Assembly (NCBI GenBank): GCA_964546845.1
Contig: CAZJMY010000424.1
Span: forward strand, 23,672-87,671
From: an uncultured Myxococcales bacterium
GTDB taxonomy: Bacteria; Myxococcota_A; Polyangia; Fen-1088
Direction: 5' to 3'
DNA: 64,000 nucleotides
Part shown: positions 22,760 through 60,356 of the stretch, piece by piece
How positions within the stretch are numbered: the stretch's first letter is position 1
How the letters are laid out: each line of letters opens with the position of its first letter
Notes under the pieces: generated by a model
Databases searched by the model: none
What the model saw: only the letters and a program-made list of their open reading frames with translations
Told to the model about the DNA's origin: nothing
Program-made: the position numbers and the translations under genes

Positions 22760-23185
22760 TCAGATCAGGAACGCGTGCTTGAGGAGGACGAGGGGCGGGC
22801 CTTCGCGGGCCGGCCCATGTCGCTGCGCTGCCCGATCGAAACGAACGGCAGGAGGTAAGGCGACGGGAGCGAAAGGGGCGAGGAGAGCGACGGCGATGGT
22901 CGGCGTGAGATCGGGGGCCGACGATCGAGCGACGTCGCCTTTTGGCCGCTGGGCGTCCGCGATCTCCTGATCGCAGCAGTCCTGGGCTTTGAGGGTGGGC
23001 CCCGACGGCCGCTCCTCTTTCTGGTGCGAGCAGCAGCATGCCGTCCGCAAGAGGCCGTCGATCCGGCAGCGGAGCATCGCTTGCGCCGGCAGATAGACCA
23101 GCAGCAGCAGGGCAGGCGCGAGCGCCACCACTTTCTGCCAAAGGCTATGCCGCCGTGAAGTCACCTGTCCTAGAGAGTCCGTCAT
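22760..23185 (-). CDS. small single-TM Cys-cluster protein (family member 2)
   Basis: ATG at 23185. TM helix WQKVVALAPALLLLVYL, then RCRIDGLLRTACCCSHQ...AQDCCDQE. C-terminus PPLVLLKHAFLI matches member 3. Confidence 0.55.
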   Translation of the reverse strand: MTDSLGQVTSRRHSLWQKVVALAPALLLLVYLPAQAMLRCRIDGLLRTACCCSHQKEERPSGPTLKAQDCCDQEIADAQRPKGDVARSSAPDLTPTIAVALLAPFAPVALPPAVRFDRAAQRHGPAREGPPLVLLKHAFLI

Positions 23186-23282
23186 CGAGAGATTCCTGTC
23201 AAACCGTGGGGAAACACCGACGGGACTGTGGACAGGCCCGGTCCCGCGGATGCAGGACCGGGCCGATATCAGCCGGGCCGCA

Positions 23283-23768
23283 TTATCGCGAGCAGGCAAG
23301 CAGTCGGACGGCCGGCTTTGTGGCCCGCGGGCACGTCGGCGCCGGGGCAGCGGTCAGGGACACGCCGGGGACGACGGCTGCCTCATACTTGCGCTGCTGC
23401 GCCTCCGCCCACTGCACCATCCCCGACTTGTAGGCCGGGCCACCCATCGCCCGGTACTGCTGGGCGAGCTGGGCGTAGTGCTCGGCTTCGGGCGAGCGCG
23501 TGGCCGCTGGCGGTGCCGACAGCTGCTCCGCGAGCGCCGAGTACTTCGCGGCGTCGGCCTCCGCGCGTTGGATCATGCCGGTCTTGTACCCGACCCCGCC
23601 GAACGCGCGGTAGTGGTCCGCCTGCTCGCGATGGTGCTGCGCCATCGCCTGCGCTTCCGATGCGGTGGTGGGCTCCGCAGCCAATGCCCGGGTTGCGGGC
23701 AGGCCGAGGAGCAGCGCGCCCAGTGCGACAACGAGGTAACGAGAGGTCGATTTCGTCTTGGTAGTCAT
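23283..23768 (-). CDS. periplasmic two-repeat helical protein (family X, copy 1)
   Basis: Signal peptide. Internal repeat HYRAFGGVGYKTGMIQRAEADAAKY / QYRAMGGPAYKSGMVQWAEAQQRKY. Paralogue of 24483..25028. Confidence 0.6.
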   Translation of the reverse strand: MTTKTKSTSRYLVVALGALLLGLPATRALAAEPTTASEAQAMAQHHREQADHYRAFGGVGYKTGMIQRAEADAAKYSALAEQLSAPPAATRSPEAEHYAQLAQQYRAMGGPAYKSGMVQWAEAQQRKYEAAVVPGVSLTAAPAPTCPRATKPAVRLLACSR

Positions 23769-23871
23769 GACACACGTATCCTTTCGGTCCGAATCAGTCC
23801 CGTGAGCCTTTCGGCCGAGGGCGCCACAGGACGACGCGCGCCTCGGTCCGCCGTGCACGAACGGCGGCGGC

Positions 23872-24285
23872 TCAGATCAGGAAGGACTGCTTGGCCAGAA
23901 GGATCGGGACGGCCCGCGGGGGAGGCTGCGCCAGTCGGAAGGCCGGCCGCGTCTCAGCGCTCGGAGCGAAGGTGTCTATCGCGAGGAACGATTCAGGCGC
24001 GAGGAAGACCTTTGCCGTCGGCGCCGCAGCACGCGGCACAGTGACCGCCGTCGTGGGGCGCGCGTCGGCGCGGGAAACGCGGCAGCAACAGGCAGGAGAA
24101 ACCGTGGCCCGGTCAGTCGCGCCGGCAGCCCCGCTGTTGTGCCCGCCCGGGCAGCAGCACTCGGTGCGCGCGACCTGGTCGCCTTCGCAGACGAAGCTGA
24201 GAGCGCCCGACGCGAAGGCCGGCGTCACCAGCAGCGACAATGTCGCCACCGCGATCCAGAGCCTACGCAGACCGCTGAGCCTCAT
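23872..24285 (-). CDS. small single-TM Cys-cluster protein (family member 3)
   Basis: ATG at 24285. Signal/TM segment LWIAVATLSLLVTPAFA, then FVCEGDQVARTECCCPGG...SPACCCRVS. C-terminus VPILLAKQSFLI. Confidence 0.55.
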   Translation of the reverse strand: MRLSGLRRLWIAVATLSLLVTPAFASGALSFVCEGDQVARTECCCPGGHNSGAAGATDRATVSPACCCRVSRADARPTTAVTVPRAAAPTAKVFLAPESFLAIDTFAPSAETRPAFRLAQPPPRAVPILLAKQSFLI

Positions 24286-24482
24286 GCTTGTCGTTACGAA
24301 TGTGACCGCTCGGCGGTTACAACGCAAGGGGCGATGAGCAGGGGCGGCTTGGTGCATGGCGTCCATCGCGGAATCTCGTGCTCTTCACCTGGAGACGCAG
24401 CCGAGACCGAGTCCTTACACCCCGAAAGGTAGAAAGCGTCGATCTCGGCTACATCGAGGGGACGTTTCTGGCGGTGCCAGCA

Positions 24483-25028
24483 TCAATCTCGGACTGCCAG
24501 GAAGCAGACGATCGGCTTACTCGACCGGCAGGAGTGGTCGGTTGTGTGCATCGTTGCCGCGTCAGACATCGCTACCATCTCGTACTTTCGCTGCTGCGCC
24601 TCGGCCCACTGGACCAGGCCGGCCTTGTACGCGACGCCGCCCATCTGGCGGTAGCCCGCGGCTAGCTGCGCGTAGCGGTCGGCCTCAGGCGAGCGCTGCG
24701 CGTCTACTGCGGTGGGCCCGCGCAGCTCGATCGCCAGCGCGGTGTACTTCGCGGCCTCGGCTTCGGCCCGCTGCACGAGGCCCGCCTTGTAGCCGACACC
24801 GCCGAATGCTCTGTAGCGAACAGCGAGCTCACGATAGTGCTGCGCTCTCGCTTCGGCCGCCTCGGGGGTGAAAACCTCGAGCGCCGCGGTCGAAGTCTCC
24901 GCCGCGATCGATTGTGGCGGCGACGCCGTGGCCGTCACGGAAGCTTCGGGCTCCGCGGCCAGCGCGCTCGCAAGGGGGAGGGCGGCCAAGAATGCGCCCA
25001 CGATGACTCTCGAAATGTTGCTCTTCAT
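24483..25028 (-). CDS. periplasmic two-repeat helical protein (family X, copy 2)
   Basis: Signal peptide. Repeats RYRAFGGVGYKAGLVQRAEAEAAKY / GYRQMGGVAYKAGLVQWAEAQQRKY. C-terminal two-Cys tail as in copy 1. Confidence 0.6.
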   Translation of the reverse strand: MKSNISRVIVGAFLAALPLASALAAEPEASVTATASPPQSIAAETSTAALEVFTPEAAEARAQHYRELAVRYRAFGGVGYKAGLVQRAEAEAAKYTALAIELRGPTAVDAQRSPEADRYAQLAAGYRQMGGVAYKAGLVQWAEAQQRKYEMVAMSDAATMHTTDHSCRSSKPIVCFLAVRD

Positions 25029-25130
25029 GACTGGGATCCTTTCGGCGAACCGTGATGTTGAGATGTCCACTGATGCCTTCCCTACGCCGCCTGCTGCCGT
25101 CAGTTACGACCCGGCGGCTGGGGCGCATCC

Positions 25131-25697
25131 GTGGCAGACTTGCGCGCCGTGAGCGCGACGAACCGACAGGAACAAATGCTCGCCGAGCACCACCGGCAGT
25201 TCCTCGCCTTCCTCCGACCGCGCGTCGAGATCGACGCTGTTGCGGAGGACATCCTCCAGGATGCGTACGCGAAGAGTGTCAGCAGGTCGGCGGAAATCCG
25301 GGACGACGACAGTGTCGTGGCCTGGTTCTATCGGGTGCTACGAAACGCCGTCGTCGATCACTACCGCCGAGCAGGGGCGGACCGGAATACACGCGCCCGC
25401 TTCGAGACTGAGACCGAGGGATCGTTCGAGCCTGAGCTGCGCGACAACGTCTGCACCTGCGTCAGCTCCTTGCTCCCGGATCTGAAACCCGAATACGCCG
25501 ACATCCTCACCGCCGTCGACCTGAACGAGCGCTCGATCGGGGAGGTCGCGGCGGAGCGGGGGCTCACCGCCAACAACACCACCGTCCGGCTCCATCGAGC
25601 GCGCGCCGCTCTTCGTCGCCGGCTCGTAGACGTGTGCGGCGCATGCAGCGACCACGGCTGCATCGACTGTACCTGTCGAACGTCGCCACCGCGCTGA
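25131..25697 (+). CDS. ECF sigma-70 factor with C-terminal Cys-rich extension (CorE-like)
   Basis: Region 2 (AEDILQDAYAK...WFYRVLRNAVVDHYRR) and region 4 (LNERSIGEVAAERGLTANNTTVRLHRARAALRR), plus VCTC in the linker and CGACSDHGCIDCTC at the C-terminus. Start uncertain (GTG 25131 or ATG 25176). Confidence 0.85.
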   Translation: MADLRAVSATNRQEQMLAEHHRQFLAFLRPRVEIDAVAEDILQDAYAKSVSRSAEIRDDDSVVAWFYRVLRNAVVDHYRRAGADRNTRARFETETEGSFEPELRDNVCTCVSSLLPDLKPEYADILTAVDLNERSIGEVAAERGLTANNTTVRLHRARAALRRRLVDVCGACSDHGCIDCTCRTSPPR

Positions 25698-25699
25698 CT

Positions 25700-25745
25700 C
25701 TGCCGCGCCCTCGGTCAGTCGCAGCCTTTGCCCTTTCGGAGTGGC
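25700..25745 (+). repeat. ~45-nt intergenic motif, copy A (shared with 35630..35678)
   Basis: CTGCCGCGCCCTCGGTCAGTCGCAGCCTTTGCC begins 3 nt after the sigma gene stop. About 80% identical by eye to the sequence downstream of copA. Confidence 0.4.
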
Positions 25746-25751
25746 CTCCTG

Positions 25752-26540
25752 CTAGGCGCCCGATCTGTGCGCCCCGCCGACGGCGACCGTGCTCAAGAGA
25801 TCAGCGAAGGCGCGTGCGAGGTCCATGGTCGGCTCGGCGGCGAGCGCTGCGGCCGCTGCCTCCTCGATGCGGCAGCCGTCGAGCAGGCCCGTTCGCAGCG
25901 CGTGTTGGCCGGGTGAAAGGGCGCGGACGTAAGGACCACCCCCGTCGCAGGCGACTTCAAACAAACGTGGGCTCGCTTCGATGGCAAGCGGTCCGAAAAC
26001 GTCGTCGTTCTGATGCGAGCGCCAGATGTCGTCGATGGGCCAATCCGACTGCAGCAAACGCAGCGAGGGAACGAGGGGCAACTGCGCGTCAATCGAGAGC
26101 GCCGTTGCGCTCCTGCTCGCGGCCCAGGACAGGCTCGGTTCGGCCGGCGCCATGCATTCGTACGCCTGCTGCGCTTCGTGGAGCGCCCACTCGAGACGCG
26201 CGATGTCGACGAGATACGGAAGCCCGGCACACACAGGGAGAGCACCGATGCTAGCCGCGAGACCGTCGCCGTAGTGCGACAGCCTCGGATCGCGCGGGGG
26301 GGATCGGTCGATGTGGTGGCGCGCCAGCTGGCGGAAGAAGCCATCGCCGACCAGCCGGCGCGTCACCGGATAGACCTCGCCCAGCGCGAGCGTCAGCGAC
26401 TCGATGACGTGTTCGCGGTAAATTGCGAGGCGCTCATGGCTGCTGGCTGCGTCGTGCGCGAGCACTGCCGTGAGCTGCTCCATGTCTCCTCCCAGCACCG
26501 CAGCCTGGAGGAGCGCCTGGTTGCTGGCCGCGCGACTCAT
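25752..26540 (-). CDS. bufC: DUF2063-family protein (BufC/HvfC-like partner of DUF692)
   Basis: ATG at 26540 in an ATGA overlap with the DUF692 stop. ERLAIYREHV...YPVTRRLVGDGFF...LPYLVDIARLEWALHEA pattern. Confidence 0.8.
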   Translation of the reverse strand: MSRAASNQALLQAAVLGGDMEQLTAVLAHDAASSHERLAIYREHVIESLTLALGEVYPVTRRLVGDGFFRQLARHHIDRSPPRDPRLSHYGDGLAASIGALPVCAGLPYLVDIARLEWALHEAQQAYECMAPAEPSLSWAASRSATALSIDAQLPLVPSLRLLQSDWPIDDIWRSHQNDDVFGPLAIEASPRLFEVACDGGGPYVRALSPGQHALRTGLLDGCRIEEAAAAALAAEPTMDLARAFADLLSTVAVGGAHRSGA

Positions 26541-27361
26541 GAGGGAAGGTTGGTGGCGCCGGCGGCGACGGCGTCGGCGCGCCTGGCTTCCGCGAGCAAC
26601 GTCTGCAGATCCGGAATCCGCGTGTCCCACTCAACCAGCGTCGGGACATTGCCGAATCGACGTACGGCATCGGCATAGAGAGACAGCACCGCTGCCGGTA
26701 CGTGCGATCCGTGGTCGTCGATCAGCAGCGAGCCGGTGGCGAGGCGACGTTCGCAATGGCCGGCGAGGTGAATCTCGCCCACCGCGCCGCGGGGAAGTCC
26801 GTCGAGGTACGTCCGTGGATCGAAGCCGACGTTGAAGGCGGAGACAAAAACGTTGTTGACGTCGCACAACAATCCGCAGCCCGTCCGGCGCACCAGCTCG
26901 TGCAGGAATTGAGGCTCCGCCAGGCTGGAGTCCCGGAACGCGACGTAAAGTGAAGGGTTCTCGACCAGGATCGGCCTGCCCAGGCAATCTTGCAGGGCGT
27001 TGACCTTGGCCGTGACGATCGCCATCGTCTCTTCGTCATAGGTGATGGGGAGAAGGGCGTTCGTGAACACACCGCCGAGCCCCGCGAACGCGAGGTGCTC
27101 GGAGACCAACATCGGCTCCACGGCCTGCACCAGCTCGCGCAGCCGCGCCACATGCGCGGGGTCCAACCGCTCTGCCGAGCCCAGAGACAGCCCCACACCG
27201 TGTATGGAGATGGGATGCCGCTCCCGCAGCGTGAGCAACTTCCGGCGCGCGTCGCCGCGGTCCATGTAGTTCTCCGTATGGACTTCGAGCCACGCGGCGC
27301 CCGTCGCTCCCGCCACGAGGTCGTCGACGTGCGGCGCGCGCAAGCCGATACCGGCGTTCAT
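26537..27361 (-). CDS. bufB: DUF692 / MbnB-like iron enzyme (BufB/HvfB-like)
   Basis: GIGLRAPH...WLEVHTENY...ISIHGVGLSLGS...VSEHLAF...LLPITY...ILVENPSLY...CGLLCDVNNVFVS...EIHLAGH. The start directly abuts the precursor gene stop. Confidence 0.88.
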   Translation of the reverse strand: MNAGIGLRAPHVDDLVAGATGAAWLEVHTENYMDRGDARRKLLTLRERHPISIHGVGLSLGSAERLDPAHVARLRELVQAVEPMLVSEHLAFAGLGGVFTNALLPITYDEETMAIVTAKVNALQDCLGRPILVENPSLYVAFRDSSLAEPQFLHELVRRTGCGLLCDVNNVFVSAFNVGFDPRTYLDGLPRGAVGEIHLAGHCERRLATGSLLIDDHGSHVPAAVLSLYADAVRRFGNVPTLVEWDTRIPDLQTLLAEARRADAVAAGATNLPS

Positions 27362-27631
27362 CTATTTCTTCTCGGTCAGGTTACCGCCGACGATTTTCTG
27401 GCATGTGCCTGCCGGTACGTAGATCCAGCTTGCCGGGTCGCTGTCGACTTTCGACACATGACCGCAAGCGTGAGTCGACGTGTAGCAATCGTTTTGGCCG
27501 GCTCGCGAGACCCCATAGCACTTCTCGAACTTGTAGGTCGGTTTCTCGGGGTGGGTCTGGGCCATGGCCGCGGCGGCCACGCCGAGCGACAGAGCGCCGG
27601 CGATCGTCGATGCGAGAGCGTTGATCGTCAT
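27362..27631 (-). CDS. bufA: DUF2282 four-Cys precursor peptide (bufferin / HvfA-like)
   Basis: 89 aa. Sec signal ending AAMAQ. Core [23 protein letters not shown]...[12 protein letters not shown] with the four conserved Cys. The 219-aa track ORF is an extension. Confidence 0.85.
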
Positions 27632-27678
27632 GTTCGTCTCCTGGTTGTTGTTCGGTCCCTCAATGATGGTGAATCGTG

Positions 27679-28863
27679 CTAGAGCTGTCCGCGGACGCCG
27701 AGGAGGAAGACTCCCCCTCTCGCTCGAGGCAGCAGCGACGCGATGCCGTCGTTCTCCGAAAGCGTGAATGCGTAGACAGCGGTGTACAGCCGGAGCCGGG
27801 TCTCGAGGCGATAAGAGGCACCGATCTCGGCTGCGTACAGCTCGTTCCTGCTCACCGAGCCGTCGCGCCTGTGCGCCTGCTGCACGAACCCACCGGCGTC
27901 CCACGGGCCGGACTCGCGGTTTACGCTGGCAGTGAATCCGTAACCGATGCTCGACGACGGATCGTCCAGCATGAGTGTTCGCCGAGCGTAGTCGAGCGAG
28001 CCGCTGGCGCCGACGATCCACTCGTCATTGACCACCAGGGTGATGCCGGCGTTTCCGGAGTGGAGGTCGCGCGGAAACCTGCCACCCGCGCCGTCGCTGA
28101 GCGTCTGATGCCCGAATCCGTAGCTTCCCCCGATGCGCAGCACGTTCTGGCCAAAGTAGCGCTCGTGGACGATTCCGGCCTGCGCCGAGGAGGCGTAGTC
28201 CGCGCCGAACGGTGTGGGGTCTGCATTGGTTGTCCCCGCGAGCCCGAGCTGCAGACCGAAGAAGCGCGGGGAGACGTATATGAGCTTCGGCGAGAAGTCA
28301 CCCGCGAACGCCGTCGCGATACCGAGATAACTGAGGCTTGCTACTGCCGTCGCCACCGCGGGTGCGAGCAATGCCGTTTGCAAGCCGCCATGCGGAAACA
28401 GGTTGAGGCCGGAAGGTGGACCGAACTCGACGCCGGTGAAGGTGTAGCTGTTGGGCGCGTAGCCAACCAGTGTGTCCGGCAGCCCCTGCCGATAGCCAAG
28501 TTCGAGGCGACCCCACGGGGTGCTCAGGACCAGGCTGCGGTCTCCCACGCCTACCGGCCCCTGTCCCACACTCTGGACGACCACCCGCGGGCCGAAGCTG
28601 AAGCCGCCGGGGGCCTCTATACGAAGGTATGTGCGTAGCGCGATGTCGGCGCGACCGCGAAGCGCGTGCTCGGGTCGCGGTCCCTTCAGCCCGTCGACGA
28701 CGCCTCCTGTGAGGTTCGCGAAGCCCTCGACGGTCGCTGCGAAGGGCCGCTCGTCGCCCGAGATCTGTGCCTCGACTGCTGCGGGACGAAGCAGCACGAA
28801 CATGGCCGCAGCAGCTGCGATCGAGACCGCGAGGTCTCCCCTACAAACGCGAACATTTGGCAT
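27679..28863 (-). CDS. porin-like outer-membrane beta-barrel protein
   Basis: ATG at 28863 gives a signal peptide. Alternating beta-strand pattern rich in G/Y/F/R/D with frequent YGF / GxSY motifs. Function inferred from composition only. Confidence 0.55.
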
Positions 28864-29143
28864 TTGGCATCCTGGCCTCTCACGGGCCGTAGCCAATACG
28901 CCGGGTGAGCCCGGAGTTACGCCTCGACCCAAAATCGCCAGGAGAATGTCCGCCACCCTGCCGAACCGGAGCACGGGCGCAGCTCAAACGCCGAGCTCGG
29001 GTTGCTCGCGAGCAGCGGTTTCGGACGCCCGCATGGATGCAAGGCCTGAGTGGGCATGAGCGCGGCGGAGACGCCGTATCGCCAGCGAGTACGTGCCCGG
29101 ACCGAGCTCCCGTCGCGTCCGGGCGCCTCTACACGCCGCGCTC

Positions 29144-30697
29144 CTACCGGCCGAGCGCGTACTTGACGAAGTCTCTCAGGGCGTACTCCACTTTGGCAGG
29201 ATGCCAGTGAGGGTCGAGATTCAGTAGCGAGTTGGGATCGCCGAAAAGGAGCCCGAGGAATACCTCCGCGACGATGCGACCGCCGACGGGCCCCAGTTGC
29301 GGAGTGTTGACCGAGCCACCACCCGTCACCGGAATGGGCGTGGACACCTTGAAGTGCATCGCCTCCGCGAGGATGTACGTCCACAAGGGGCAGTTGTGCG
29401 CGAATGGTCTCAGGGCGGGTATCGAGGCGATGCTGCCAAGTGGCTGGTCCGGCTTGTCCACGGCCTTTCCGATGAGGATCTCTTCATCCCTGAGAACCGT
29501 GACCCCCATGGCCCGCGCGACGGCCTGTCCGGAAGGTAGTCCCAGGCGGAGGCCACGCTCCAGGTTTCGCACTGCGAGCGAAGATGGAGTGCTGGCCACC
29601 GCGGCTGGGAGGTTGTTTAGGGGGGTCACGAGGGATGTGTCGATCCGATAGGCGAATTGCAGCCGGCGTGCATTTTCCTCCAGCTGTGCCTGGGTCGGCG
29701 CCTCGCCCTCGGGCGTCTTCCCGTCGTCGCCGAGGGCGACTCCCGGGGCCCTGGTCTCGAGGTCGATCATCCGCCCCCAGTCGATACCCCCGTCGGGAAT
29801 CATGGCCTGGAACCCCGTCAGACCCTCGGGAAAGCCAGTCACTGGGAAGATCGGCCGCAAGACATTGTCGTTGAGGCGATAACCGGGACGGATCATCGAA
29901 TGACCGAGCCGGTACGCGGCGGCGGAGAATTCGACCGGCATGAACGGCTCGTGCTTCCAGTGGAAGAATTCGAGACGCGACCTGTCGTAATTCTTGCCTG
30001 ACTTCAGGCTGTTCAACACCGCCGGATGGACGATGCGCGGCAGGAAGTCGTTCAAGACGACATATTGATAGTGGAACCGCACCAGCTCTTGAATCTCGGC
30101 GAACGGCCGACCCGGGTTGTCCTTCAGCGTTCGATTGTGAAACCGCAAGAACAGACCGTGCAGCTGCGATACGATGCTGTTTTCGTCGTTCCGCGGATCT
30201 CCTATCAAGGCTCGGGCCGGCGTCGCACCGTTCCGAGGCAGGTCCTGGGCCCCGGGATCTCCACCGGTGATTGCGGCTCCAAGGAGGAATCCGTCGTTTC
30301 CATCGTACAGGTAGGGCTGGTCGTCCGGGCCACGTCCGTAGACGCTGTCCAGGTCGAAGGCGGGGGTGCGGAAGTCGACCAACGCGTCAGGGTCGTTTTG
30401 TTTCTGCAAGCTGCTCGCTGGATCGAACGTGATGTCGTGATCGATGAACTGCCCGAGGTACGTGTAGAGCGCCGGAATGCCGCTCTCTTCGTCGTCGGGG
30501 CCGTCCTTCGGAGGATCATCCAGCGTCGGCGACATCGCGGCGCCGAGAGTCCTCAGGTTGGCGATGCTGTCAGCATCGCCCCGGCCGAAATGTGCCGGCG
30601 GCAGGGAACGAAACATGCGCCCGAAACGCCCGTTGAAGGACGCCGAGCGGCCGGATGACATCAACCCGCGCAATGGTAATCCGTGTCGTGCACTCAT
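29144..30697 (-). CDS. animal-haem-peroxidase-family (peroxidase-cyclooxygenase superfamily) enzyme
   Basis: ATG at 30697 with GGAGG RBS. YLGQFIDHDITFD (distal His), GDPRNDEN, AAYRLGHSMIRP (proximal His). No signal peptide seen. The 738-aa track ORF is an extension. Confidence 0.85.
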   Translation of the reverse strand: MSARHGLPLRGLMSSGRSASFNGRFGRMFRSLPPAHFGRGDADSIANLRTLGAAMSPTLDDPPKDGPDDEESGIPALYTYLGQFIDHDITFDPASSLQKQNDPDALVDFRTPAFDLDSVYGRGPDDQPYLYDGNDGFLLGAAITGGDPGAQDLPRNGATPARALIGDPRNDENSIVSQLHGLFLRFHNRTLKDNPGRPFAEIQELVRFHYQYVVLNDFLPRIVHPAVLNSLKSGKNYDRSRLEFFHWKHEPFMPVEFSAAAYRLGHSMIRPGYRLNDNVLRPIFPVTGFPEGLTGFQAMIPDGGIDWGRMIDLETRAPGVALGDDGKTPEGEAPTQAQLEENARRLQFAYRIDTSLVTPLNNLPAAVASTPSSLAVRNLERGLRLGLPSGQAVARAMGVTVLRDEEILIGKAVDKPDQPLGSIASIPALRPFAHNCPLWTYILAEAMHFKVSTPIPVTGGGSVNTPQLGPVGGRIVAEVFLGLLFGDPNSLLNLDPHWHPAKVEYALRDFVKYALGR

Positions 30698-30888
30698 AGG
30701 AACCTCCTGCTGTTTTCCGACGTTCGGTGGTCGTTGGGACAACGTCCGTGGTGTCTCGGCGGTCGATGGCGCGTCGGCCGGTTCGCGCTGATCATCCAGT
30801 CGGGCAGAGCAGCGGCGGATGCGGGCCGCCCTGCCTTCCCCGGCTGGCCGTAGCGCCCCCACCAGCCCCGTGACCCTGCGCGAAAACG

Positions 30889-31641
30889 TCACACATCGAA
30901 CACGAGCTGTTCTCTCGCGCGCGCGAGCCGCTTTTGGGCCATCGCGACGTAGTCGGCGTTCATTTCCCATCCGAGGAAGCGGCGCCCGAGGCGGATGGCT
31001 GCCACGCCCGTGGTCCCGGAGCCCGCGAACGGGTCGACGATCAGCTCGCCCGGATTCGAGAACAAGCGAACGAGAGTCTCCATGAGGGCGAGCGGCTTCT
31101 GAGTCTGGTGACCGGTGCGCACGTCGCCGCCCTTGTTCACAATGAACACTCCATGGGAGCCGCCGCCGTTCCAGGCGCTCCGGCCGGGCGCGTGGCACGC
31201 CACGATCGACTCGTACCCGATCCCCGGGCGATCTCCCGAGTACTGCGGCTTGCCGTCCGGCTTGATCCACAGGCAGGTCCGCTTGTAGACAGCGCCGCCG
31301 CCCTCCAGCGCGGCACGCCACTTCATCGCCGCCTCGACTTGGCAAAAGACCAAGATCCACCGCCGCGCGAGGCGCGCCATTTGGCGCGCCGACTCGGCGC
31401 GCAGCTCCTCGGTAATCGGGGGGAACGTCAGGGGCTCGATCTCCAACCTACCGCCCGCCCGCGCCACGAGACGCTGGCTCGTGTGGGCCTCGGCTTCGTA
31501 AGGGGGATCGGTTATGACGACGTCCGCGGAGCCGTCCGGGAGCGACGACAAACCGGCCAAGCAGTCGCCCTCGGAAAGGGACCACGCCTGTGGCTCTCTG
31601 ACATCCGTTGCGGGCCGGCGCGTCCTGACCGAATTGGACAT
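30889..31641 (-). CDS. beta-class N6-adenine/N4-cytosine DNA methyltransferase (orphan)
   Basis: Motif IV VITDPPY precedes motif I VDPFAGSGTTGVAA (beta-class order). 250 aa. No adjacent endonuclease. Confidence 0.85.
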   Translation of the reverse strand: MSNSVRTRRPATDVREPQAWSLSEGDCLAGLSSLPDGSADVVITDPPYEAEAHTSQRLVARAGGRLEIEPLTFPPITEELRAESARQMARLARRWILVFCQVEAAMKWRAALEGGGAVYKRTCLWIKPDGKPQYSGDRPGIGYESIVACHAPGRSAWNGGGSHGVFIVNKGGDVRTGHQTQKPLALMETLVRLFSNPGELIVDPFAGSGTTGVAAIRLGRRFLGWEMNADYVAMAQKRLARAREQLVFDV

Positions 31642-31752
31642 TCGGACGGGAAAAGCGGAGCCAACAAGGGGTTTGTGACCACCCCTCGAGAACGCGCCCC
31701 TCCCCTTGGCATCTGGCCGAGACAGTTCCGGCGGGCGCTAAGAATGATCGGT

Positions 31753-32256
31753 CTAGCCGGCGTGTTGCTTCCGCCATCCGTAAGCGGTTACGCCGCGTGG
31801 CTTGTAGACGGACAGCGCGGTTGCCGCTAACAAGACGAGAACGGCAGCGATCGCGTCTCCGAGGAGCTGGATCCGAACGCTCCGTAGATCCCCGGCCGAC
31901 AGGGTCATCTCGGCCGCGGCCCGGGCGACGCCGCCGATCGGCTGGGTGTGCAGCAAGAGGAGCCCGCTCGCGAGGAGATTCAAGATCAGCTTCGCGAGCA
32001 CCCAGTAGTGGCGGAACAGACCCCACGGCGTGCCGAGCGCCTGGACGACGCCCGTCACCAGAGACGCGAAGCTCGCCGGTACAATCACCCACCAGGTGAC
32101 AGTGCTCGCCGCCAAATACGACGCCCTGACGGTCGCAGGATCCGGGCTCGCGAGACCGGCCCAGGCGAGCGCGAGGAATGTCACCACGGCGCCCAGCCAC
32201 CCGACGGAGCAGGTGACGTGCAGGGTGAGGAACAGCTTTCGGACCCCGGGGCGCAT
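31753..32256 (-). CDS. integral membrane protein (four predicted TM helices)
   Basis: Track ORF with four long hydrophobic segments. Family not recognised with confidence. Confidence 0.55.
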   Translation of the reverse strand: MRPGVRKLFLTLHVTCSVGWLGAVVTFLALAWAGLASPDPATVRASYLAASTVTWWVIVPASFASLVTGVVQALGTPWGLFRHYWVLAKLILNLLASGLLLLHTQPIGGVARAAAEMTLSAGDLRSVRIQLLGDAIAAVLVLLAATALSVYKPRGVTAYGWRKQHAG

Positions 32257-51182: not shown

Positions 51183-53517
<2,335 letters not shown>

Positions 53518-53521
<4 letters not shown>

Positions 53522-53799
53522 CCCCGGAGCGACAAGATGGCGACCTCAAGCGTGCGGTGGAGCGACGCCGGGCCCGCCGCGACCGATGGCTGCGCGAGGG
53601 CGAGCGGCCGCTCGCGCGCAACCTGGCTCTCGTCGGGACGCTCGGGTGGCTCATCGTCGTCCCGGCGCTCCTCGGCGCGCTGGCGGGTCACGCCCTCGAT
53701 CGTCGCGCTGGCACCGGGGTGACGTTCACGTCCGCGCTCATCTTCGCTGGTGTTGCGATCGGGTGCTGGCTCGCCTTCAGCCACGTGAGGCGCTCATGA
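53518..53799 (+). CDS. atpQ: AtpQ (AtpI-like) small membrane protein of N-ATPase operons
   Basis: 93 aa with an Arg-rich N-terminus and two TM helices. Assigned by position between atpC and atpR. Confidence 0.65.
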
Positions 53800-54080
53800 C
53801 GATCAAGGCTGTGCTGGTCGCGCTCCTGTTCGCCTTCGGCGGGTTCGGTGTCGGTCTCGCGCACCTGGCCACACTGCGCGGCAACCTGCGCCTTTATCTC
53901 GACGGAGGGGTGCGTGTCGCGGCGGTGGCAGCTCACGTCGCCCGCCTCGCGCTCTTGGCCACTGTCTGGATCGTCGCAGCGCGCGTCAGTGGCGCCGTCG
54001 GGCTGCTCGCAGGTTTCGCCGGCTTCCTTCTGGCCCGGCTGGCCGTCACCTCCCGGATGAACATGAGGGAACGGCGATGA
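53796..54080 (+). CDS. atpR: AtpR small membrane protein of N-ATPase operons
   Basis: ATGA overlap. 94 aa with three hydrophobic segments and embedded Arg ([12 protein letters not shown]). Assigned by position before atpB. Confidence 0.65.
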
Positions 54081-54751
54081 GCCGAGCTTCTCCCCTCGAG
54101 ACGGAGATCTTGTTCCACCTGGGCTCGATCCCGATTGCGCGTCCAGTGGTGACGACGTTCGCGATCACCCTCTTGCTTGGTCTCGGCAGCTGGGCGGTCA
54201 CTCGTCACATGCGGGTCGCGCCTGGTCGTTCGCAGGCGGTGCTCGAAGCGGTCGTGACCTGGATCGGCGATCAAGTGCAGGAGATCGTGCGGCGCGATCC
54301 GACGCCGTTCGTCCCGCTGCTTGGAACTTTGTTCCTGTACATAGCGGTCGCGAACTTGTCGGCGGTCCTACCCGGGGTGAAGTCCCCGACCGCGAGCATC
54401 GAGACGCCGGCGGCGCTGGCCATCGTGGTCTTCTTTGCGGCCCATGCCTACGGGATCCGGGCGCAAGGGGTGAAGCGCTATTTTGCCTCGTACCTCGAGC
54501 CCAATCCCCTGCTCTTGCCCCTCAACATCGTCTCGGAGATCACGAGGACATTCTCGCTCATGGTCCGGCTCTTCGGAAACATGATGAGCCACGAGCTGGT
54601 GCTCGGAATCGTGGCCACCATCGCCGGCCTCCTCGTGCCGATTCCCTTCATGGCGCTGGGGATCCTGGTGGGGGTCATCCAGGCATACATCTTTTCGATC
54701 TTGGCAACCGTGTTCGTGGGCGCGGCCGTAGGGGCCGTCGAGAAAGGATAG
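54077..54751 (+). CDS. atpB: ATP synthase a subunit
   Basis: ATGA overlap. Conserved stator Arg region [14 protein letters not shown]. Five or six TM helices. Confidence 0.87.
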
Positions 54752-54756
54752 AGAAA

Positions 54757-54999
54757 ATGACCGTTCAAGTGATCAGCGTGATTTGTGCAACCGTCGCCGT
54801 GTCGATCGGCGCCATCATCCCGCCTCTTGCAGAGGGGCGCGCTATCGTCGCAGCGCTGGAGGCCATCGCCCGCCAGCCCGAGGCGCAGGGGCCCCTGTCA
54901 CGGACCCTGTTCGTCGGCCTCGCGATGATCGAGACGATGGCGATCTATTGCCTCGTCGTGGCGCTGCTGCTGCTCTTCGCGAACCCCTACGCCCGTTAA
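54757..54999 (+). CDS. atpE: ATP synthase c subunit (proteolipid)
   Basis: 80-aa helical hairpin with ARQPE loop. Helix-2 carboxylate in [11 protein letters not shown] and an additional helix-1 Glu in PPLAEGRA. Confidence 0.88.
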
Positions 55000-55018
55000 G
55001 GGCGATCCCGGATACACC

Positions 55019-55756
55019 ATGAGCGGGTGGACCCTAGTCTTCCAGATCGTGAACTTCGTGGTCCTCGCGGCCGTGCTCCGCCGTTTCCTGTTCAAACCGG
55101 TTGCCGCCATGGTTGCGAAGCGCCAGCAGAATCTGGCGGCCACCGCCGCGGAGGGGGAGCGCGTTCGCCGTGAGGCCGAGGCGCTTCGTCTCAACGCCGA
55201 CAAGGCCCTCGCCGAGGCGGTCGAGATCCGCGAGCGAGCGCTCGCCGAGGGGCGGGCGCAGATAGCGCGAGAGCGGGAGGAGACCCTCGCGAAGGCTCGG
55301 CAGGAGGCGAGCAGCACCCTCGACGTGGCCAGGCACGAGATTGATCGCGAGCGCGACAAGGCGGCCGACGCCGCCGCGACCGGGGCGTTGGATCTGGCCG
55401 CCGTGATCGCGCGACGGTTGCTCGAGCAGGTCTCCGCGACGTCGTTGGTCGACGCATTCCTCGCCCGGCTCTGCGAGCACCTCGACGGCGCCTCCGAAGA
55501 GAGCAAGCGCGCGCTGCGCGACGATCTCGGCGCCCGCGAGCTCCTCGTGGCGACGGCGCCCCCGCTCGGCCCCGACGCCGGCCCACGGTGGCGCGCGGAC
55601 ATCGCGCGGCGTCTCGGCGACGGGGTCGCCATAAGGCTCGTCGCCGACGACGCCCTGGTGGCCGGCGCCGAGCTGCGCTTCCCGCACACGACACTCTCTT
55701 TCTGCTGGCGCGATGGCATTAAGGCCGCACGCGAGGAGTTGGCGCGCCATGCCTAG
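55019..55756 (+). CDS. atpF: ATP synthase b subunit (long, 245 aa)
   Basis: N-terminal TM helix followed by an Ala/Arg/Glu-rich long helix. Assigned by operon position. Confidence 0.72.
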   Translation: MSGWTLVFQIVNFVVLAAVLRRFLFKPVAAMVAKRQQNLAATAAEGERVRREAEALRLNADKALAEAVEIRERALAEGRAQIAREREETLAKARQEASSTLDVARHEIDRERDKAADAAATGALDLAAVIARRLLEQVSATSLVDAFLARLCEHLDGASEESKRALRDDLGARELLVATAPPLGPDAGPRWRADIARRLGDGVAIRLVADDALVAGAELRFPHTTLSFCWRDGIKAAREELARHA

Positions 55757-57275
55757 CGTTACCGAACAGGTTGTCGGGCGCCTCGAGCGGGCGCGTGCGG
55801 CCGCCGAAGGTCTGACAACCGAGCCGGTCGAGCGCGAGCGCGGCACCGTCGAGACCGTGGGTGCGGGGGTGGTCACCGTCTCCGGGCTCCCCAGCACGCG
55901 TCTCGATGAGATCCTCCGCCTGTCCGGCGACAGCTACGCGATGGCGGTCGTGCTCGACGTCGATCGAATCGGCGCCGTGCTCCTCGATCGCGCCGACACC
56001 GTCACCGCCGGCGGGGAGGTCAGCGGCACCGGCGAGGTCCTCCGGGTGCCGGTCGGCGAGGGGCTGCTCGGTCGGATCGTCGATCCGCTCGGCCGGCCGC
56101 TCGACGGCGGCCCTGCGATCGAGGCGGTCCGGCGCGATCCCATCGAGCGTCCGGCACCCACGATCATCGAGCGGGACCTCGTGACCGAGCCCTTGCACAC
56201 GGGCCTCTTGGTGGTCGATGCGATGATCCCCATCGGGCGCGGGCAACGCGAGCTCATCATCGGGGATCGGGTGACGGGCAAGACGCAGGTGGCGTTGGAC
56301 GCGGTGCTGGCGCAGCGAACGTCGGACGTGGTGTGCGTCTACGCCGCGGTAGGGCAGAAGGCATCCGCGATCGGACGTCTGATCGAGGAGGTCAAGGCCT
56401 CGGGACCGTTCGATCGCTGCATCTTCGTCGTGGCAGAGGCCGACGACCAGCCCGGCATGCAATGGATCGCTCCCTACGCCGCCTGCACGATGGCGGAGTA
56501 CTTCCGCGACCGCGGCGGCCACGCGCTGCTCATCATCGACGACCTGACGAAGCACGCGATCGTCCACCGCGAACTCTCGCTCTTGCTCCGGAACCCTCCC
56601 GGCCGTGAAGCCTACCCGGGCGACGTCTTCTATCTCCACGCGCGCCTACTCGAGCGCGCCGCCAAGCTGTCGAAGGAGAGGGGCGGCGGCTCGCTCACCG
56701 CGCTGCCGATCGCCGAGACGCAGGGCGGGAACATGAGCGCATACATTCCGACCAACCTCATTTCGATCACCGATGGGCAGATCTACCTCGAGACCAAGTT
56801 GTTTCACGAGGGACAGAAGCCGGCCGTCAATGTGGGCAAGAGCGTCAGTCGCGTGGGGGGTAAGACCCAGCCTCACGCTATTCGCTCCCTCGCCGGGAGC
56901 CTGCGCCTCGACTACGCGCAGTTCCTAGAGTTGGAGGTGTTCGCTCGATTCGGCCAGGTCCTCGACCCCCGAACCGAGCAGGCCCTCGACCGCGGGCGCC
57001 GGATCCGCGCGGCCCTCGAGCAGCCGCAGTCCGAGCCGCATGCGCTGGTGACTGAGGCGGCCATCCTCGTCGCGGTCCGGGAGGGGGTGCTCGACGGACT
57101 ACCTCTTCCCAAAGTGGCGCCCTTCATGCGAGCGCTGGGATCAGATCTGAGCACATGGGAGCCTGGCCTCGTCGAGCGCGTCGAGCACACGGGCCGCCTC
57201 GACGAGCCGGATCGCACCCGCATTGTCGACTGGCTCCGCCGGCGGGCGCAGGCAATTGCGAAGGGCGGAGGCTAG
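55749..57275 (+). CDS. atpA: ATP synthase alpha subunit
   Basis: The ATG at 55749 overlaps the atpF end. Walker A GDRVTGKTQVAL. Alpha-type core. Confidence 0.92.
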   Translation: MPSVTEQVVGRLERARAAAEGLTTEPVERERGTVETVGAGVVTVSGLPSTRLDEILRLSGDSYAMAVVLDVDRIGAVLLDRADTVTAGGEVSGTGEVLRVPVGEGLLGRIVDPLGRPLDGGPAIEAVRRDPIERPAPTIIERDLVTEPLHTGLLVVDAMIPIGRGQRELIIGDRVTGKTQVALDAVLAQRTSDVVCVYAAVGQKASAIGRLIEEVKASGPFDRCIFVVAEADDQPGMQWIAPYAACTMAEYFRDRGGHALLIIDDLTKHAIVHRELSLLLRNPPGREAYPGDVFYLHARLLERAAKLSKERGGGSLTALPIAETQGGNMSAYIPTNLISITDGQIYLETKLFHEGQKPAVNVGKSVSRVGGKTQPHAIRSLAGSLRLDYAQFLELEVFARFGQVLDPRTEQALDRGRRIRAALEQPQSEPHALVTEAAILVAVREGVLDGLPLPKVAPFMRALGSDLSTWEPGLVERVEHTGRLDEPDRTRIVDWLRRRAQAIAKGGG

Positions 57276-58133: not shown

Positions 58134-59975
58134 ATGAAAGATCCCGTCTGTGGCATGCCTGTCGAACCGACGACGCCGTTCCGCGCCTCGTGGGAAGGCA
58201 GCGACTACTACTTCTGTTCGGCCCTGTGCCGGGAGGCTTTTCTCTCCCGACCGGGCGAAACGATCCCCCGCGAGCTTCCTTCGCCGGCCGCGGAGAACCG
58301 CGCCTCGAGGCGCGTCGCGTATCTGACCATGGAGATCGCCCTCGATTCCCGGATGGCGACTTACAGCGGGGGCCTCGGCGTCCTCGCGGGCGACACAGTC
58401 CGCGCCGCCGCCGATCTCGGCGTGCCCCTCGTGGCCGTCACGCTCCTCTATCGCGATGGCTATCTCGCGCAGTCAATCGATCCTGCTTCCGGCCAGCAGG
58501 AAACTCCCGAGCGCTGGCCCTTCGGAGAGTTTCTGCAACCGCTGGCAGAGACCGCCGAGGTCACGATCGACGGTCGCGCGGTCCGCGTGCGGGCGTGGCG
58601 GTACGATGTGGTCGGGGTCGCTGGGGCCAAGTGCCCCGTCCTGTTCCTCGATACCGAGCTTCCCGAGAACGATCCGCTCGATCGGGCGCTCTGCGGCCGG
58701 CTCTACTCGGGAGACGATCGGTACCGTCTGGCCCAGGAGGTGGTGTTGGGCGTCGGCTCGGTCCGCGTCCTGGATGCCCTGGGCTACTCCGGTATCGACC
58801 GCTATCACATGAACGAAGGCCACGCCGCGCTCGCGCCGCTCGAGCTGGCGCGTCGCCTGAATGCCGGGCGACCCGAGATGGAGTGGCGCTTCGATGACGT
58901 CCGCCGTCGCTCGGTCTTCACCACGCACACGCCCGTCGCGGCGGGCCACGACCACTTCTCACGGGAAATCGCGCAGCGCGTGCTCGGGGGAATGGTGCCA
59001 CCGCGGGTGTTGGAAATGCTGGGTGGCGACGGACAGCTCGACATGACCTCGTTGGCCCTGAATCTGTCGGGATACGTCAACGGCGTCGCACGCAAACACG
59101 CCGAGATCTCCCGCCAGATGCACCCCGGGTACGGCATCCATCACATCACGAACGGCGTCCACTCGAAGACCTGGACGGCGACCGCGTTTAGGGCGCTCTA
59201 CGATCGCCACCTGCCAGGCTGGGACGGCGACCCGTCGATGTTGCGGAACGCGATCGCCCTTCCGTCCGAGGAGGTGTGGCAGGCCCACCTGACCAGCAAG
59301 GCCGAGCTGATCGAGGTCGTTCGTCGGCTGACCGGCACGAATCTCGACGCGGGCGCGCTGACCATCGGGTTCGCGCGGCGAGCGACCCAGTATAAAAGGG
59401 CCGATCTGGTGTTCGACGATCTGCCGCGTCTTCGCGAGATCGCGCGGCGGCGGCCGGTCCAACTGGTCTTCGCGGGCAAAGCGCATCAACGCGACGACGA
59501 AGGGAAGCGTATCATCAGGCGCATTCTCGAGATCGGGCGCGAGCTGGGACGCGACGTGCCGGTCGTGTACCTGCCCAACTACGACACGGCGCTCGCGCGA
59601 GCCGTCGTCGCCGGGGTGGACGTCTGGCTCAACACGCCGCAAAGGCCCCTCGAGGCATCGGGCACGTCCGGAATGAAGGCTGCCCACAACGGCGTTCCGA
59701 GCCTGAGCGTGCTCGACGGCTGGTGGATCGAGGGCTGCGTCGAGGGTGTGACCGGCTGGGCGATTGGCGATCTCCGCCCACCCGGCGATCCGAACGAGGA
59801 TCGCCGGAGCGAGGCGCAGGATCTGCTGACGAAGCTCGACAGGCAGATCCTGCCCGCCTACTACGACGAACGGGAACGCTGGATCTCGATCATGCGCCAC
59901 GTGATCAGCCTGAACGCGTCGTTCTTCAACACGCACCGCATGGTCCAGCAGTACGTGACCAACGCCTATATCTGA
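58134..59975 (+). CDS. glgP: alpha-glucan phosphorylase (GlgP family) with N-terminal YHS/TRASH metal-binding domain
   Basis: N-terminus [10 protein letters not shown]...[12 protein letters not shown]. Core YLTMEIAL...[11 protein letters not shown]...LLYRDGY and PLP-Lys motif [14 protein letters not shown]. Starts 1 nt after the atpG stop. Confidence 0.87.
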
Positions 59976-59990
59976 ATGCTCAACGCAGGT

Positions 59991-60356
59991 TCACTCGACC
60001 ATGATCGCGCCGCCGTGCATCTTCATGCTGCACGCGAAGCCGCGCTCGCCCGATTTGGCGAACGTGACCGCCACCTCCACCGGCTGATTGAGCGGGAGCT
60101 TCCGGGACACAGTCTTGTCGTCGTCGAGATAGATGACGACGTCCTTCGCGCAGGTGTGGTCCGTACGCCGCGTGAACACAAGCGTTACCGGCTCACCCTT
60201 CTTGACCGCAAGCCGCTTCGGCGAGAAGCCCTCCTCGGTCACGCTGATCTCGATCCGTCTCGCCGCCTTGTCCCCCCCGAGGAGCGCGCCGCTCCGGAGA
60301 GAATAGGCCGCAGCCAGGAGCAGGACGAAGACGCGGGCGTAAGCGTGAGTTCTCAT
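59991..60356 (-). CDS. cupredoxin-like periplasmic protein (paralogue of 15347..15817)
   Basis: ATG at 60356. 121 aa with signal peptide. [35 protein letters not shown]...[11 protein letters not shown]. The 464-aa track ORF is an extension. Confidence 0.7.

Follow-up and report, generated by a model that had tools for sequence, protein, structure and literature searches.

A porin family encoded directly upstream of bufferin precursor genes, and a porin-first, DoxX-less bufABC cluster from an uncultured Myxococcales bacterium

In a stretch of 64,000 nucleotides from an uncultured Myxococcales bacterium (contig CAZJMY010000424.1; hereafter the window), we found a porin gene directly ahead of the three bufferin genes bufA, bufB and bufC. 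Since their description in 2024, bufferins have been known as a copper defence of very wide distribution, and sequence comparisons confirmed the cluster as a genuine bufferin gene cluster. The porin is a conserved partner of bufA and not an incidental neighbour. With good but not full confidence we read the locus as a four-gene operon, porin-bufA-bufB-bufC, representing a porin-first, DoxX-less variant of the Buf1 type inside a copper/metal-resistance island. What appears to be new here, judged from the sequences compared, is a 16-stranded porin family whose genes were found only immediately ahead of bufA genes from one particular BufA1 subfamily. The porin-first, DoxX-less bufABC architecture is conserved and apparently unreported.

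On the minus strand of the window, which has a G+C content of about 68%, five genes follow one another in the order peroxidase, porin, bufA, bufB and bufC, and the initial annotation had placed all five correctly. The porin gene (27679-28863) encodes 394 amino acids with a Sec signal peptide and matched Pfam Porin_4 with 44.1 bits (cut-off 27). It is separated by 47 bp from bufA (27362-27631), which encodes an 89-residue BufA1/DUF2282 bufferin precursor (PF10048, 81.3 bits, cut-off 22.4). The TAG stop codon of bufA is followed without a gap by the ATG of bufB (26537-27361), encoding a bufferin maturase of 274 amino acids from the DUF692 family of multinuclear non-haem iron oxidases (MNIO; NCBIfam MNIO_BufB, 343.8 bits, cut-off 310). 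The bufB and bufC genes share an ATGA overlap, which was read directly in the sequence, and bufC (25752-26540) encodes the DUF2063 partner protein of 262 amino acids (PF09836, 71.1 bits, cut-off 27.2).

The linkage between porin and bufA became apparent in a metagenome scan with the porin alignment, which returned 80 loci at 35-60% identity. A bufA homologue was located on the same strand, 19-168 bp past the porin, in 67 of the 67 loci counted, namely those with at least 300 bp of sequence past the porin. Besides these metagenomic loci, bufA lay directly downstream of the porin in eight further contexts, and the family was found nowhere else, so that the wording of the initial annotation, which had given the cluster 'its own porin', proved apt. 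A BufA1 gene directly followed the porin homologue in five distinct contexts with porin identities of 58%, 57%, 45%, 40% and 38%, and apparently also in a sixth (74%), where the 61-residue gene after the porin ends at the contig edge. Overall, bufA followed every porin homologue with a readable context, from 74% down to 28% porin identity. A sister group of BufA proteins has a more distant member of the porin family directly upstream (31% identity, BLASTP E = 6e-34, hhalign probability 100%). When the open reading frames (ORFs) of 86 loci were clustered all against all, the most widespread neighbours were the porin (72 loci) and bufA (60), followed by bufB (22), bufC (20), DoxX (17) and CusA (12). 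The genes flanking the porin-bufA loci differed between loci, and the named relatives of the porin-bufA unit were Pseudomonadota and Steroidobacteraceae metagenome-assembled genomes only.

A different picture had been obtained from the maturase side. Among species-representative genomes the best BufB match had 60% identity, and all 80 of the closest BufB loci contained bufA and bufC, but no porin or peroxidase homologue was found within 10 kb of any of them. The early impression of a chance neighbour that this gave was overturned by the search that started from the porin. Comparative synteny, as proposed in the initial annotation, upheld the linkage of the porin with bufA, and not that of the peroxidase. 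The word 'porin' does not occur in two papers on bufferins (PMC11626156, and PMC12452194 with its supplement) or in the captophorin preprint, and a literature search combining DUF2282 and porin returned no paper with an on-topic title or abstract. Within the literature searched, the partnership of porin and bufferin is therefore unreported. According to PMC12452194, further conserved genes occur in extremely low proportions, and its mining rule admitted unrelated genes only when they lay at most 10 bp from a core gene, which excludes a porin at a distance of 19-168 bp.

Most porin-bufA pairs have no adjacent MNIO gene. In six loci (L089, L132, L133, L140, L146 and L161) a canonical bufABCD cluster, with DoxX, was observed within a few kb of such an MNIO-less pair. 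Genomes that combine the two suggest that one BufBC set may modify two different precursors. In a distance tree of BufB sequences, porin-linked BufBs were mutual nearest neighbours only in small groups and were otherwise equidistant from the canonical ones (BLOSUM62-based distance 0.40-0.47, identity 45-61%).

The missing DoxX gene is a systematic feature of the porin-first architecture. The initial annotation had seen no DoxX gene at this locus, and none was detected in the whole window, either by tblastn with two BufD-type DoxX proteins (best E = 0.3) or among the 40 window ORFs scanned with Pfam. DoxX directly followed bufC in none of 16 porin-linked bufABC operons, as opposed to 76 of 89 canonical ones (Fisher p = 2e-11, uncorrected for relatedness), and because of this contrast we regard its absence as systematic and not as a local oddity. 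A BufD-like DoxX was present in 68 of the 80 closest BufB loci from species-representative genomes. The absence of DoxX is compatible with membership of the bufferins, since DoxX is dispensable for bufferin function in Caulobacter and is lacking from the buf2 cluster (PMC11626156).

The features of a Buf1-type cluster are present, namely a DUF2282 precursor with four conserved cysteines, an adjacent MNIO of the BufB type and an adjacent DUF2063 protein. All three had been proposed in the initial annotation from the letters alone, and the profile searches that it had named in advance as a possible refutation gave support for both the DUF692 and the DUF2063 assignment. The cysteines of BufA (C38, C49, C56 and C77, in the contexts EKCYG, NDCYT, HACGH and GTCQK) were invariant across 116 homologues, a second point on which the annotation could have failed. 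In the same 116 sequences E36, K37, C38, Y39, G40, N47, C49, C56, W69, G75 and C77 were invariant, as were the contexts E-K-C-Y-G, N-D-C and G-x-C. A signal peptide comprising residues 1-24 is predicted from the hydrophobic stretch and the A-M-A|Q site at residues 22-25, as read from the sequence. The AlphaFold2 (AF2) model of BufA has a helix at residues 9-22, with a predicted local distance difference test (pLDDT) score of about 62 for residues 21-30 and of 86-96 for the core.

BufB, which follows bufA directly as had been noted, matched PF05114 (MbnB_TglH_ChrH) with 320.9 bits (cut-off 25) and MbnB weakly (59.8 bits). Its closest solved structure is the DUF692 protein PDB 3BWW (113 bits). 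Invariant in 18 BufBs were H54, E88, H89, E134, D167, N170, H198, D215, H217 and E244; we take H54, H89, E134, D167, N170, H198, D215, H217 and E244 to correspond to the iron ligands of MbnB. The name HvfABC, which the initial annotation had offered as a synonym, is imprecise because NCBIfam keeps BufB and HvfB as separate families, and the window protein passes the BufB cut-off and fails that of HvfB (205.9 bits, cut-off 360). BufC likewise scored below the cut-off for HvfC (30.7 bits, cut-off 142). Homologues of bufC were detected by tblastn directly after bufB in 80 of 80 genome loci, at 33-37% identity. Sequence searches of the PDB with BufA and BufC gave no match.

The porin-linked BufA proteins can also be recognised by the predicted start of the mature peptide, A-x-A|Q-x-H-P-E-K-P-T-Y-K-[FY]-E-K-C-Y-G, a segment that the window BufA shares. 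The motif HPE[KR]P was present in 68 of 81 bufA ORFs from porin loci and in none of 86 canonical ones. Among the 81, the motif was lacking from additional bufA copies of canonical type on the opposite strand, from two H-V-E-K-P variants and from ORFs that were truncated. The N-terminal segment equalled the cysteine core in conservation across 46 unique sequences. That the motif tracks the porin in this way points to co-adaptation. In the six loci that combine a canonical cluster with a porin-bufA pair, only the porin-linked BufA copy carried the motif, which argues against a recognition element for BufBC. In about 66 of 77 sequences cleavage at A-x-A would leave Q-[VT]-H as the first residues, and such an X-X-His start may resemble an amino-terminal Cu(II)- and Ni(II)-binding (ATCUN) site for Cu(II).

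The porin family is small and sharply bounded. Only 36 homologues were found among 5.8 billion proteins, and a profile search of 1.84 billion representative proteins returned about 70 representatives at E <= 1e-30. Full-length profile scores fell from 533 to 268 bits and then dropped to about 123 bits, the level of generic porins. The 86 porin sequences collected formed 40 clusters at 90% identity and 26 at 70%; the window porin was the first, reference sequence of the profile alignment (A1). The AF2 model of the window porin (pLDDT 83, predicted template modelling score 0.81) shows a barrel of 16 strands whose L3 loop, 63 residues long, includes a helix. Foldseek matched the model to V. cholerae OmpT and OmpU, Burkholderia Omp38, Neisseria PorB and OmpF with E values of 1e-13 to 1e-10 and 10-16% identity, the probability being 1.00 for OmpT, Omp38, PorB and OmpF. 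Invariant residues (G118, R119, E121, G123, R125, P129...G159, K193, Y196, P199, G203) were concentrated in strands 5 and 6, in the L3 loop between them and in the periplasmic turn that comes next. The family alignment showed no conserved His, Met or Cys, so that a copper-specific site in the pore is not supported. The protein looks like a genuine diffusion pore rather than a metal-binding protein. In its predicted fold it shares the 16 strands and the long L3 loop with the general trimeric diffusion porins (OmpF/OmpC, OmpT/OmpU, Omp38, PorB), but differs from them in belonging to a small and bounded family of 10-16% identity to them, in being encoded directly upstream of a bufferin gene and in being driven, as it appears, by stress-type promoters.

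Promoter-like elements were found upstream of the porin and not between porin and bufA. In the window, a motif of the extracytoplasmic function (ECF) type, GTAACT-N14-CGTA, was matched on the minus strand at 28897-28920; its end lies 34 nt ahead of the porin ATG, and the stop codon of the peroxidase gene is located further upstream. Because of this motif the operon probably begins with the porin. Porin, bufA, bufB and bufC likely form one transcription unit, to judge from the place of the motif and the result of a terminator scan. A scan of 24300-31800 found no terminator-like site between porin and bufA, and the sigma-70 promoters and terminators scanned for in the same region did not exceed the shuffled background. 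The general pattern GTAAC-N14-17-CGTA occurred 5 times in the window against 0.14 expected, a number reached in 0 of 100 shuffles. It is similar to GTAACC-N16-CGAA, the sigmaF site from which the buf operons of Caulobacter are driven (PMC3511200).

When the porin loci were compared, GTAAC-N14-19-CGT preceded the porin in half of the distinct porin-bufABC upstream regions (5 of 10; background 0.6% per 150 bp). A sigma54-type element, TGGCAY-N5-TTGC, preceded the porin in 20-25 of 41 porin-bufA pairs (background 1-3%). Different lineages thus seem to have placed the porin-bufA pair under two distinct stress regulators. Since the promoter-like elements stand ahead of the porin, porin and bufferin would be made together, as a two-part system of outer membrane and periplasm. 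In loci L100-L165 most porin-bufA pairs without bufBC carried the sigma54-type element 24-57 nt ahead of the porin ATG, with repeated TTGCGG/CCGCAA-like sequences further upstream, and a gene for a sigma54 activator lies near locus L087.

By homology with the Caulobacter system (PMC11626156), BufB and BufC, acting in the cytoplasm, would turn C49 and C56 into 5-thiooxazoles, the Sec signal peptide would be cleaved after A-M-A, a disulphide would form between C38 and C77, and the product of about 65 residues would chelate periplasmic copper. As to how the porin works with the bufferin, the mechanism that we favour is an inference: the porin would be an outer-membrane channel for conditions of copper stress, and the bufferin would act where this channel opens into the periplasm. 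There the N-terminal segment of BufA, which is conserved and flexible, might dock or capture metal, so that entering copper would be chelated at once; it could thread into the porin mouth or dock at it, and the captured copper would be passed on to the thiooxazole site. We put forward only tentatively, as a possibility more doubtful than probable, that porin and bufferin form a physical copper trap spanning outer membrane and periplasm. In this architecture the porin may functionally replace DoxX.

The main rival reading is a porin that is co-regulated with the bufferin but independent of it. It would be a stress-specific replacement porin, for instance of lower copper permeability, without physical contact with the bufferin, and the N-terminal segment of BufA would serve, for example, in recognition by BufB/BufC or as an extra metal site. 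This fits the generic nature of the conserved residues (L3 loop and basic ladder, without metal ligands) and the fold, which is that of general diffusion porins, and in the BufA model the segment P-T-Y-K-F-E-K-C has a well-ordered structure and could simply belong to the fold. Co-regulation, however, needs no strict adjacency, yet the genes are adjacent in 67 of 67 loci and across at least 26 lineages (at 70% identity), with two promoter types and unrelated flanks. The BufA motif, moreover, tracks the porin almost perfectly, and its restriction to the porin-linked copy where both copies exist speaks against a role in BufBC recognition. We regard an independent porin as rather unlikely.

The porin could also be an export route by which the bufferin or its copper complex crosses the outer membrane and acts at the surface or outside the cell, like methanobactin. 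Such a role would make sense of the strict linkage and of the first position of the porin gene in the operon, and a dedicated porin could supply bufferins with an outer-membrane step, none being known for them. The modelled fold, however, is that of a classical porin, 16-stranded and constricted by a long L3 loop, without an energy source or a plug domain. Pores of the OmpF type pass solutes of about 600 Da, and not a folded, disulphide-bonded protein of about 7 kDa. Since Buf1 of Caulobacter, in addition, accumulates in the periplasm (PMC11626156), we consider export improbable. That porin and peroxidase merely happen to lie upstream of a standard bufABC cluster that has lost DoxX would agree with the 80 closest BufB loci, which have neither gene within 10 kb, and with the existence of DoxX-less clusters such as buf2 of Caulobacter (PMC11626156). 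For the porin, this explanation is refuted by the conserved linkage to bufA, and it holds for the peroxidase; for the locus as a whole we give it hardly any credence.

Several points weigh against a joint action of porin and bufferin as proposed here. The metagenomic loci are not phylogenetically independent, and the BufB tree shows no clean clade of porin-linked sequences as against the canonical clusters. For some of the porin-paired BufAs that lack an adjacent MNIO, modification may take place in trans or be absent. The promoter motifs represent matches to a pattern and not mapped transcription starts. The residues conserved in the porin, in the L3 loop and the basic ladder, are those of an ordinary pore, and they do not require copper-specific handling. 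The X-X-His start is not universal, as the sister group has Q-V-N-V-P-K-P and a few sequences have the His further in, and the N-terminal Gln could cyclise and thereby block an ATCUN site.

The core genes of bufferin clusters have been described as precursor, MNIO, DUF2063 and DoxX, with sigma/NrsF in addition for Buf1 (PMC11626156, PMC12452194). The closest known counterpart of the window cluster is buf1ABCD of Caulobacter vibrioides (CCNA_03363-03366; gig-like operons; PMC11626156, PMC12452194), which has the same order of DUF2282, MNIO and DUF2063 genes with tight or overlapping junctions and a context of metal stress, and whose sigmaF site the ECF-type GTAAC...CG motif of the window resembles. 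The window differs from it in having a porin before bufA and no bufD after bufC, in the conserved Q-x-H-P-E-K-P-T-Y extension of the mature peptide, and in a neighbouring sigma factor that is CorE-like, with a Cys-rich tail and no NrsF anti-sigma factor, instead of SigF/NrsF. Stand-alone BufA1 precursor genes (PMC12452194) resemble the many bufA genes that follow a porin and have no adjacent MNIO, but the porin-paired ones have a conserved porin and often a sigma54-type promoter-like motif. The methanobactin operons (MbnA/B/C with the receptor MbnT) likewise combine an MNIO-made copper-binding ribosomally synthesised and post-translationally modified peptide (RiPP) with an outer-membrane protein. 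Methanobactin, however, is a secreted chalkophore with TonB-dependent uptake, whereas the precursor in the window would be Sec-exported, with its product expected in the periplasm, and its partner is a passive porin.

The core set of bufferin genes acts in the cytoplasm, at the inner membrane or in the periplasm; with a dedicated porin linked to a single precursor subfamily, the system extends to the outer membrane as a further compartment, and this raises the testable question of whether a bufferin works at the channel of copper entry. The copper trap, if true, would for the first time pair a RiPP with its own outer-membrane channel, and would give a first sign of bufferins acting where metal enters, and not as free periplasmic buffers. 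The porin linkage may also explain part of the 'stand-alone' bufferin precursor genes, and it illustrates that strict intergenic-distance filters in genome mining can hide real partners.

Convergent with bufC, an ECF sigma factor is encoded on the plus strand (25176-25697), with matches to Sigma70_r2 and r4_2. It has a C-T-C (CXC) motif at residues 93-95, in the linker between sigma2 and sigma4, and a Cys-rich C-terminus, CGACSDHGCIDCTC. In NCBIfam it is SigZ-like with a score below the cut-off, and no anti-sigma gene lies beside it. A CXC motif together with a C-terminal Cys-rich domain is the signature of CorE-like copper-sensing sigma factors (formerly ECF44 and ECF238; PMC8999054), and these features make the protein a likely candidate for a copper-responsive regulator. 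With CorE and CorE2 of Myxococcus xanthus (PMC8999054) it shares both elements; it differs in its sub-threshold SigZ score, and its recognition of the GTAAC-N14-17-CGTA sites is putative. A CorE-like tail as a general feature of the porin-bufA system was rejected, as the sigma factors beside loci L083 and L089 have no such tail.

Three copies of the promoter-like motif near the buf cluster suggest a small ECF regulon. Besides the one ahead of the porin, a GTAAC-N15-CGTA copy at 25083-25107 (minus strand) lies 55 nt upstream of the gene for a secreted protein of 181 amino acids (24483-25028, minus strand), which has two repeats of about 45 residues (YRxxGGVxYKAGLVQxAEAxxxKY), found no counterpart in Pfam or NCBIfam and may belong to the regulon. 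From the end of the third, at 24295-24320 (minus strand), it is about 10 nt to the start codon, ATG at 24285, of a gene for a small Cys-rich protein with a CCC motif. Taken together, the CorE-like sigma factor, the three motif sites, porin-bufABC and the small secreted Cys-rich proteins upstream of cusCBA would form a compact candidate copper regulon. The other two copies (60164-60188 and 63855-63877, both on the minus strand) lie inside or antisense to genes and may be due to chance.

Two tandem gene pairs were observed between the sigma factor and cusC (22760-25028, minus strand). Each consists of a gene for a secreted protein with two repeats of about 45 residues (YRxxGGxxYKxGxxQxAEAxxxKY; 24483-25028 and 23283-23768), followed by one for a small protein with a CCC or CC motif (23872-24285 and about 22760-23185) and the C-terminus ...L(A)K(Q/H)(S/A)FLI. 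None of these proteins matched Pfam or NCBIfam; they may be uncharacterised copper-related envelope proteins. A related contig, that of the 74%-identity porin, encodes proteins of similar length at matching positions, a likeness of length and place only.

The wider gene content places the bufferin cluster in what is, by its predicted functions, a copper/metal-resistance island. In the downstream direction, genes on the same strand encode first four small proteins, secreted or rich in Cys, and then an outer-membrane efflux protein, a CusB-like adaptor with heavy-metal binding domains, a CusA-type pump of the resistance-nodulation-division (RND) family and a cupredoxin. Upstream, past the peroxidase, lie genes for a DNA methyltransferase, a weakly DUF2269-like membrane protein and a TetR regulator, and further on for a CopA-type P-ATPase with YHS and HMBD domains, a DUF2933 protein and an ICMT-like methyltransferase. 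Elsewhere the window encodes two more RND pumps, an N-ATPase-type operon, a YHS-fused phosphorylase-like protein and a multicopper oxidase. No housekeeping marker was present among the window ORFs scanned.

The haem peroxidase (29144-30697, minus strand, 517 amino acids; Pfam An_peroxidase, 55.4 bits, cut-off 25) ends 280 bp ahead of the porin. The initial annotation was right that it precedes the trio on the same strand, but it does not belong to the unit. Its family is large, with at least 8000 homologues, as all but three of 8000 scored candidates matched, many at about 70% identity, and its named matches were from Pseudomonadota and Acidobacteria. A homologue of 75% identity sits among glycosidase and lectin-like genes. 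No peroxidase homologue was found near porin-bufA in the loci examined. Because of the size of the family, its absence from these loci and the promoter-like motif between peroxidase and porin, we treat the peroxidase as a separate gene; as a component of the system it was rejected, being a member of a huge unrelated family that is absent from the porin-bufA loci.

Some further observations concern the surroundings of the cluster. An N6/N4 DNA methyltransferase is encoded at 30889-31641 (minus strand), between the peroxidase and the DUF2269-like and TetR genes, and no restriction-enzyme match was obtained among the neighbouring genes scanned. The G+C content at third codon positions was 0.77-0.82 for the buf, porin and peroxidase genes and 0.91 for cusA. 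The methyltransferase, together with three RND systems in 64 kb, hints at a horizontally acquired island. At 53461-57275 (plus strand) an ATPase_gene1 protein is encoded together with an ATP-synthase B subunit and an alpha/beta subunit, which have the look of an incomplete set from an N-type (alternative F-type) ATPase operon within the island. At 58134-59975 (plus strand) an N-terminal YHS domain is fused to a glycogen-phosphorylase-like domain (weak Phosphorylase match, 86 bits), which is an unusual combination. Finally, a small secreted protein of about 120 amino acids that is cupredoxin-like by eye is encoded at about 59991-60353 (minus strand), as the C-terminal part of a long spurious ORF.

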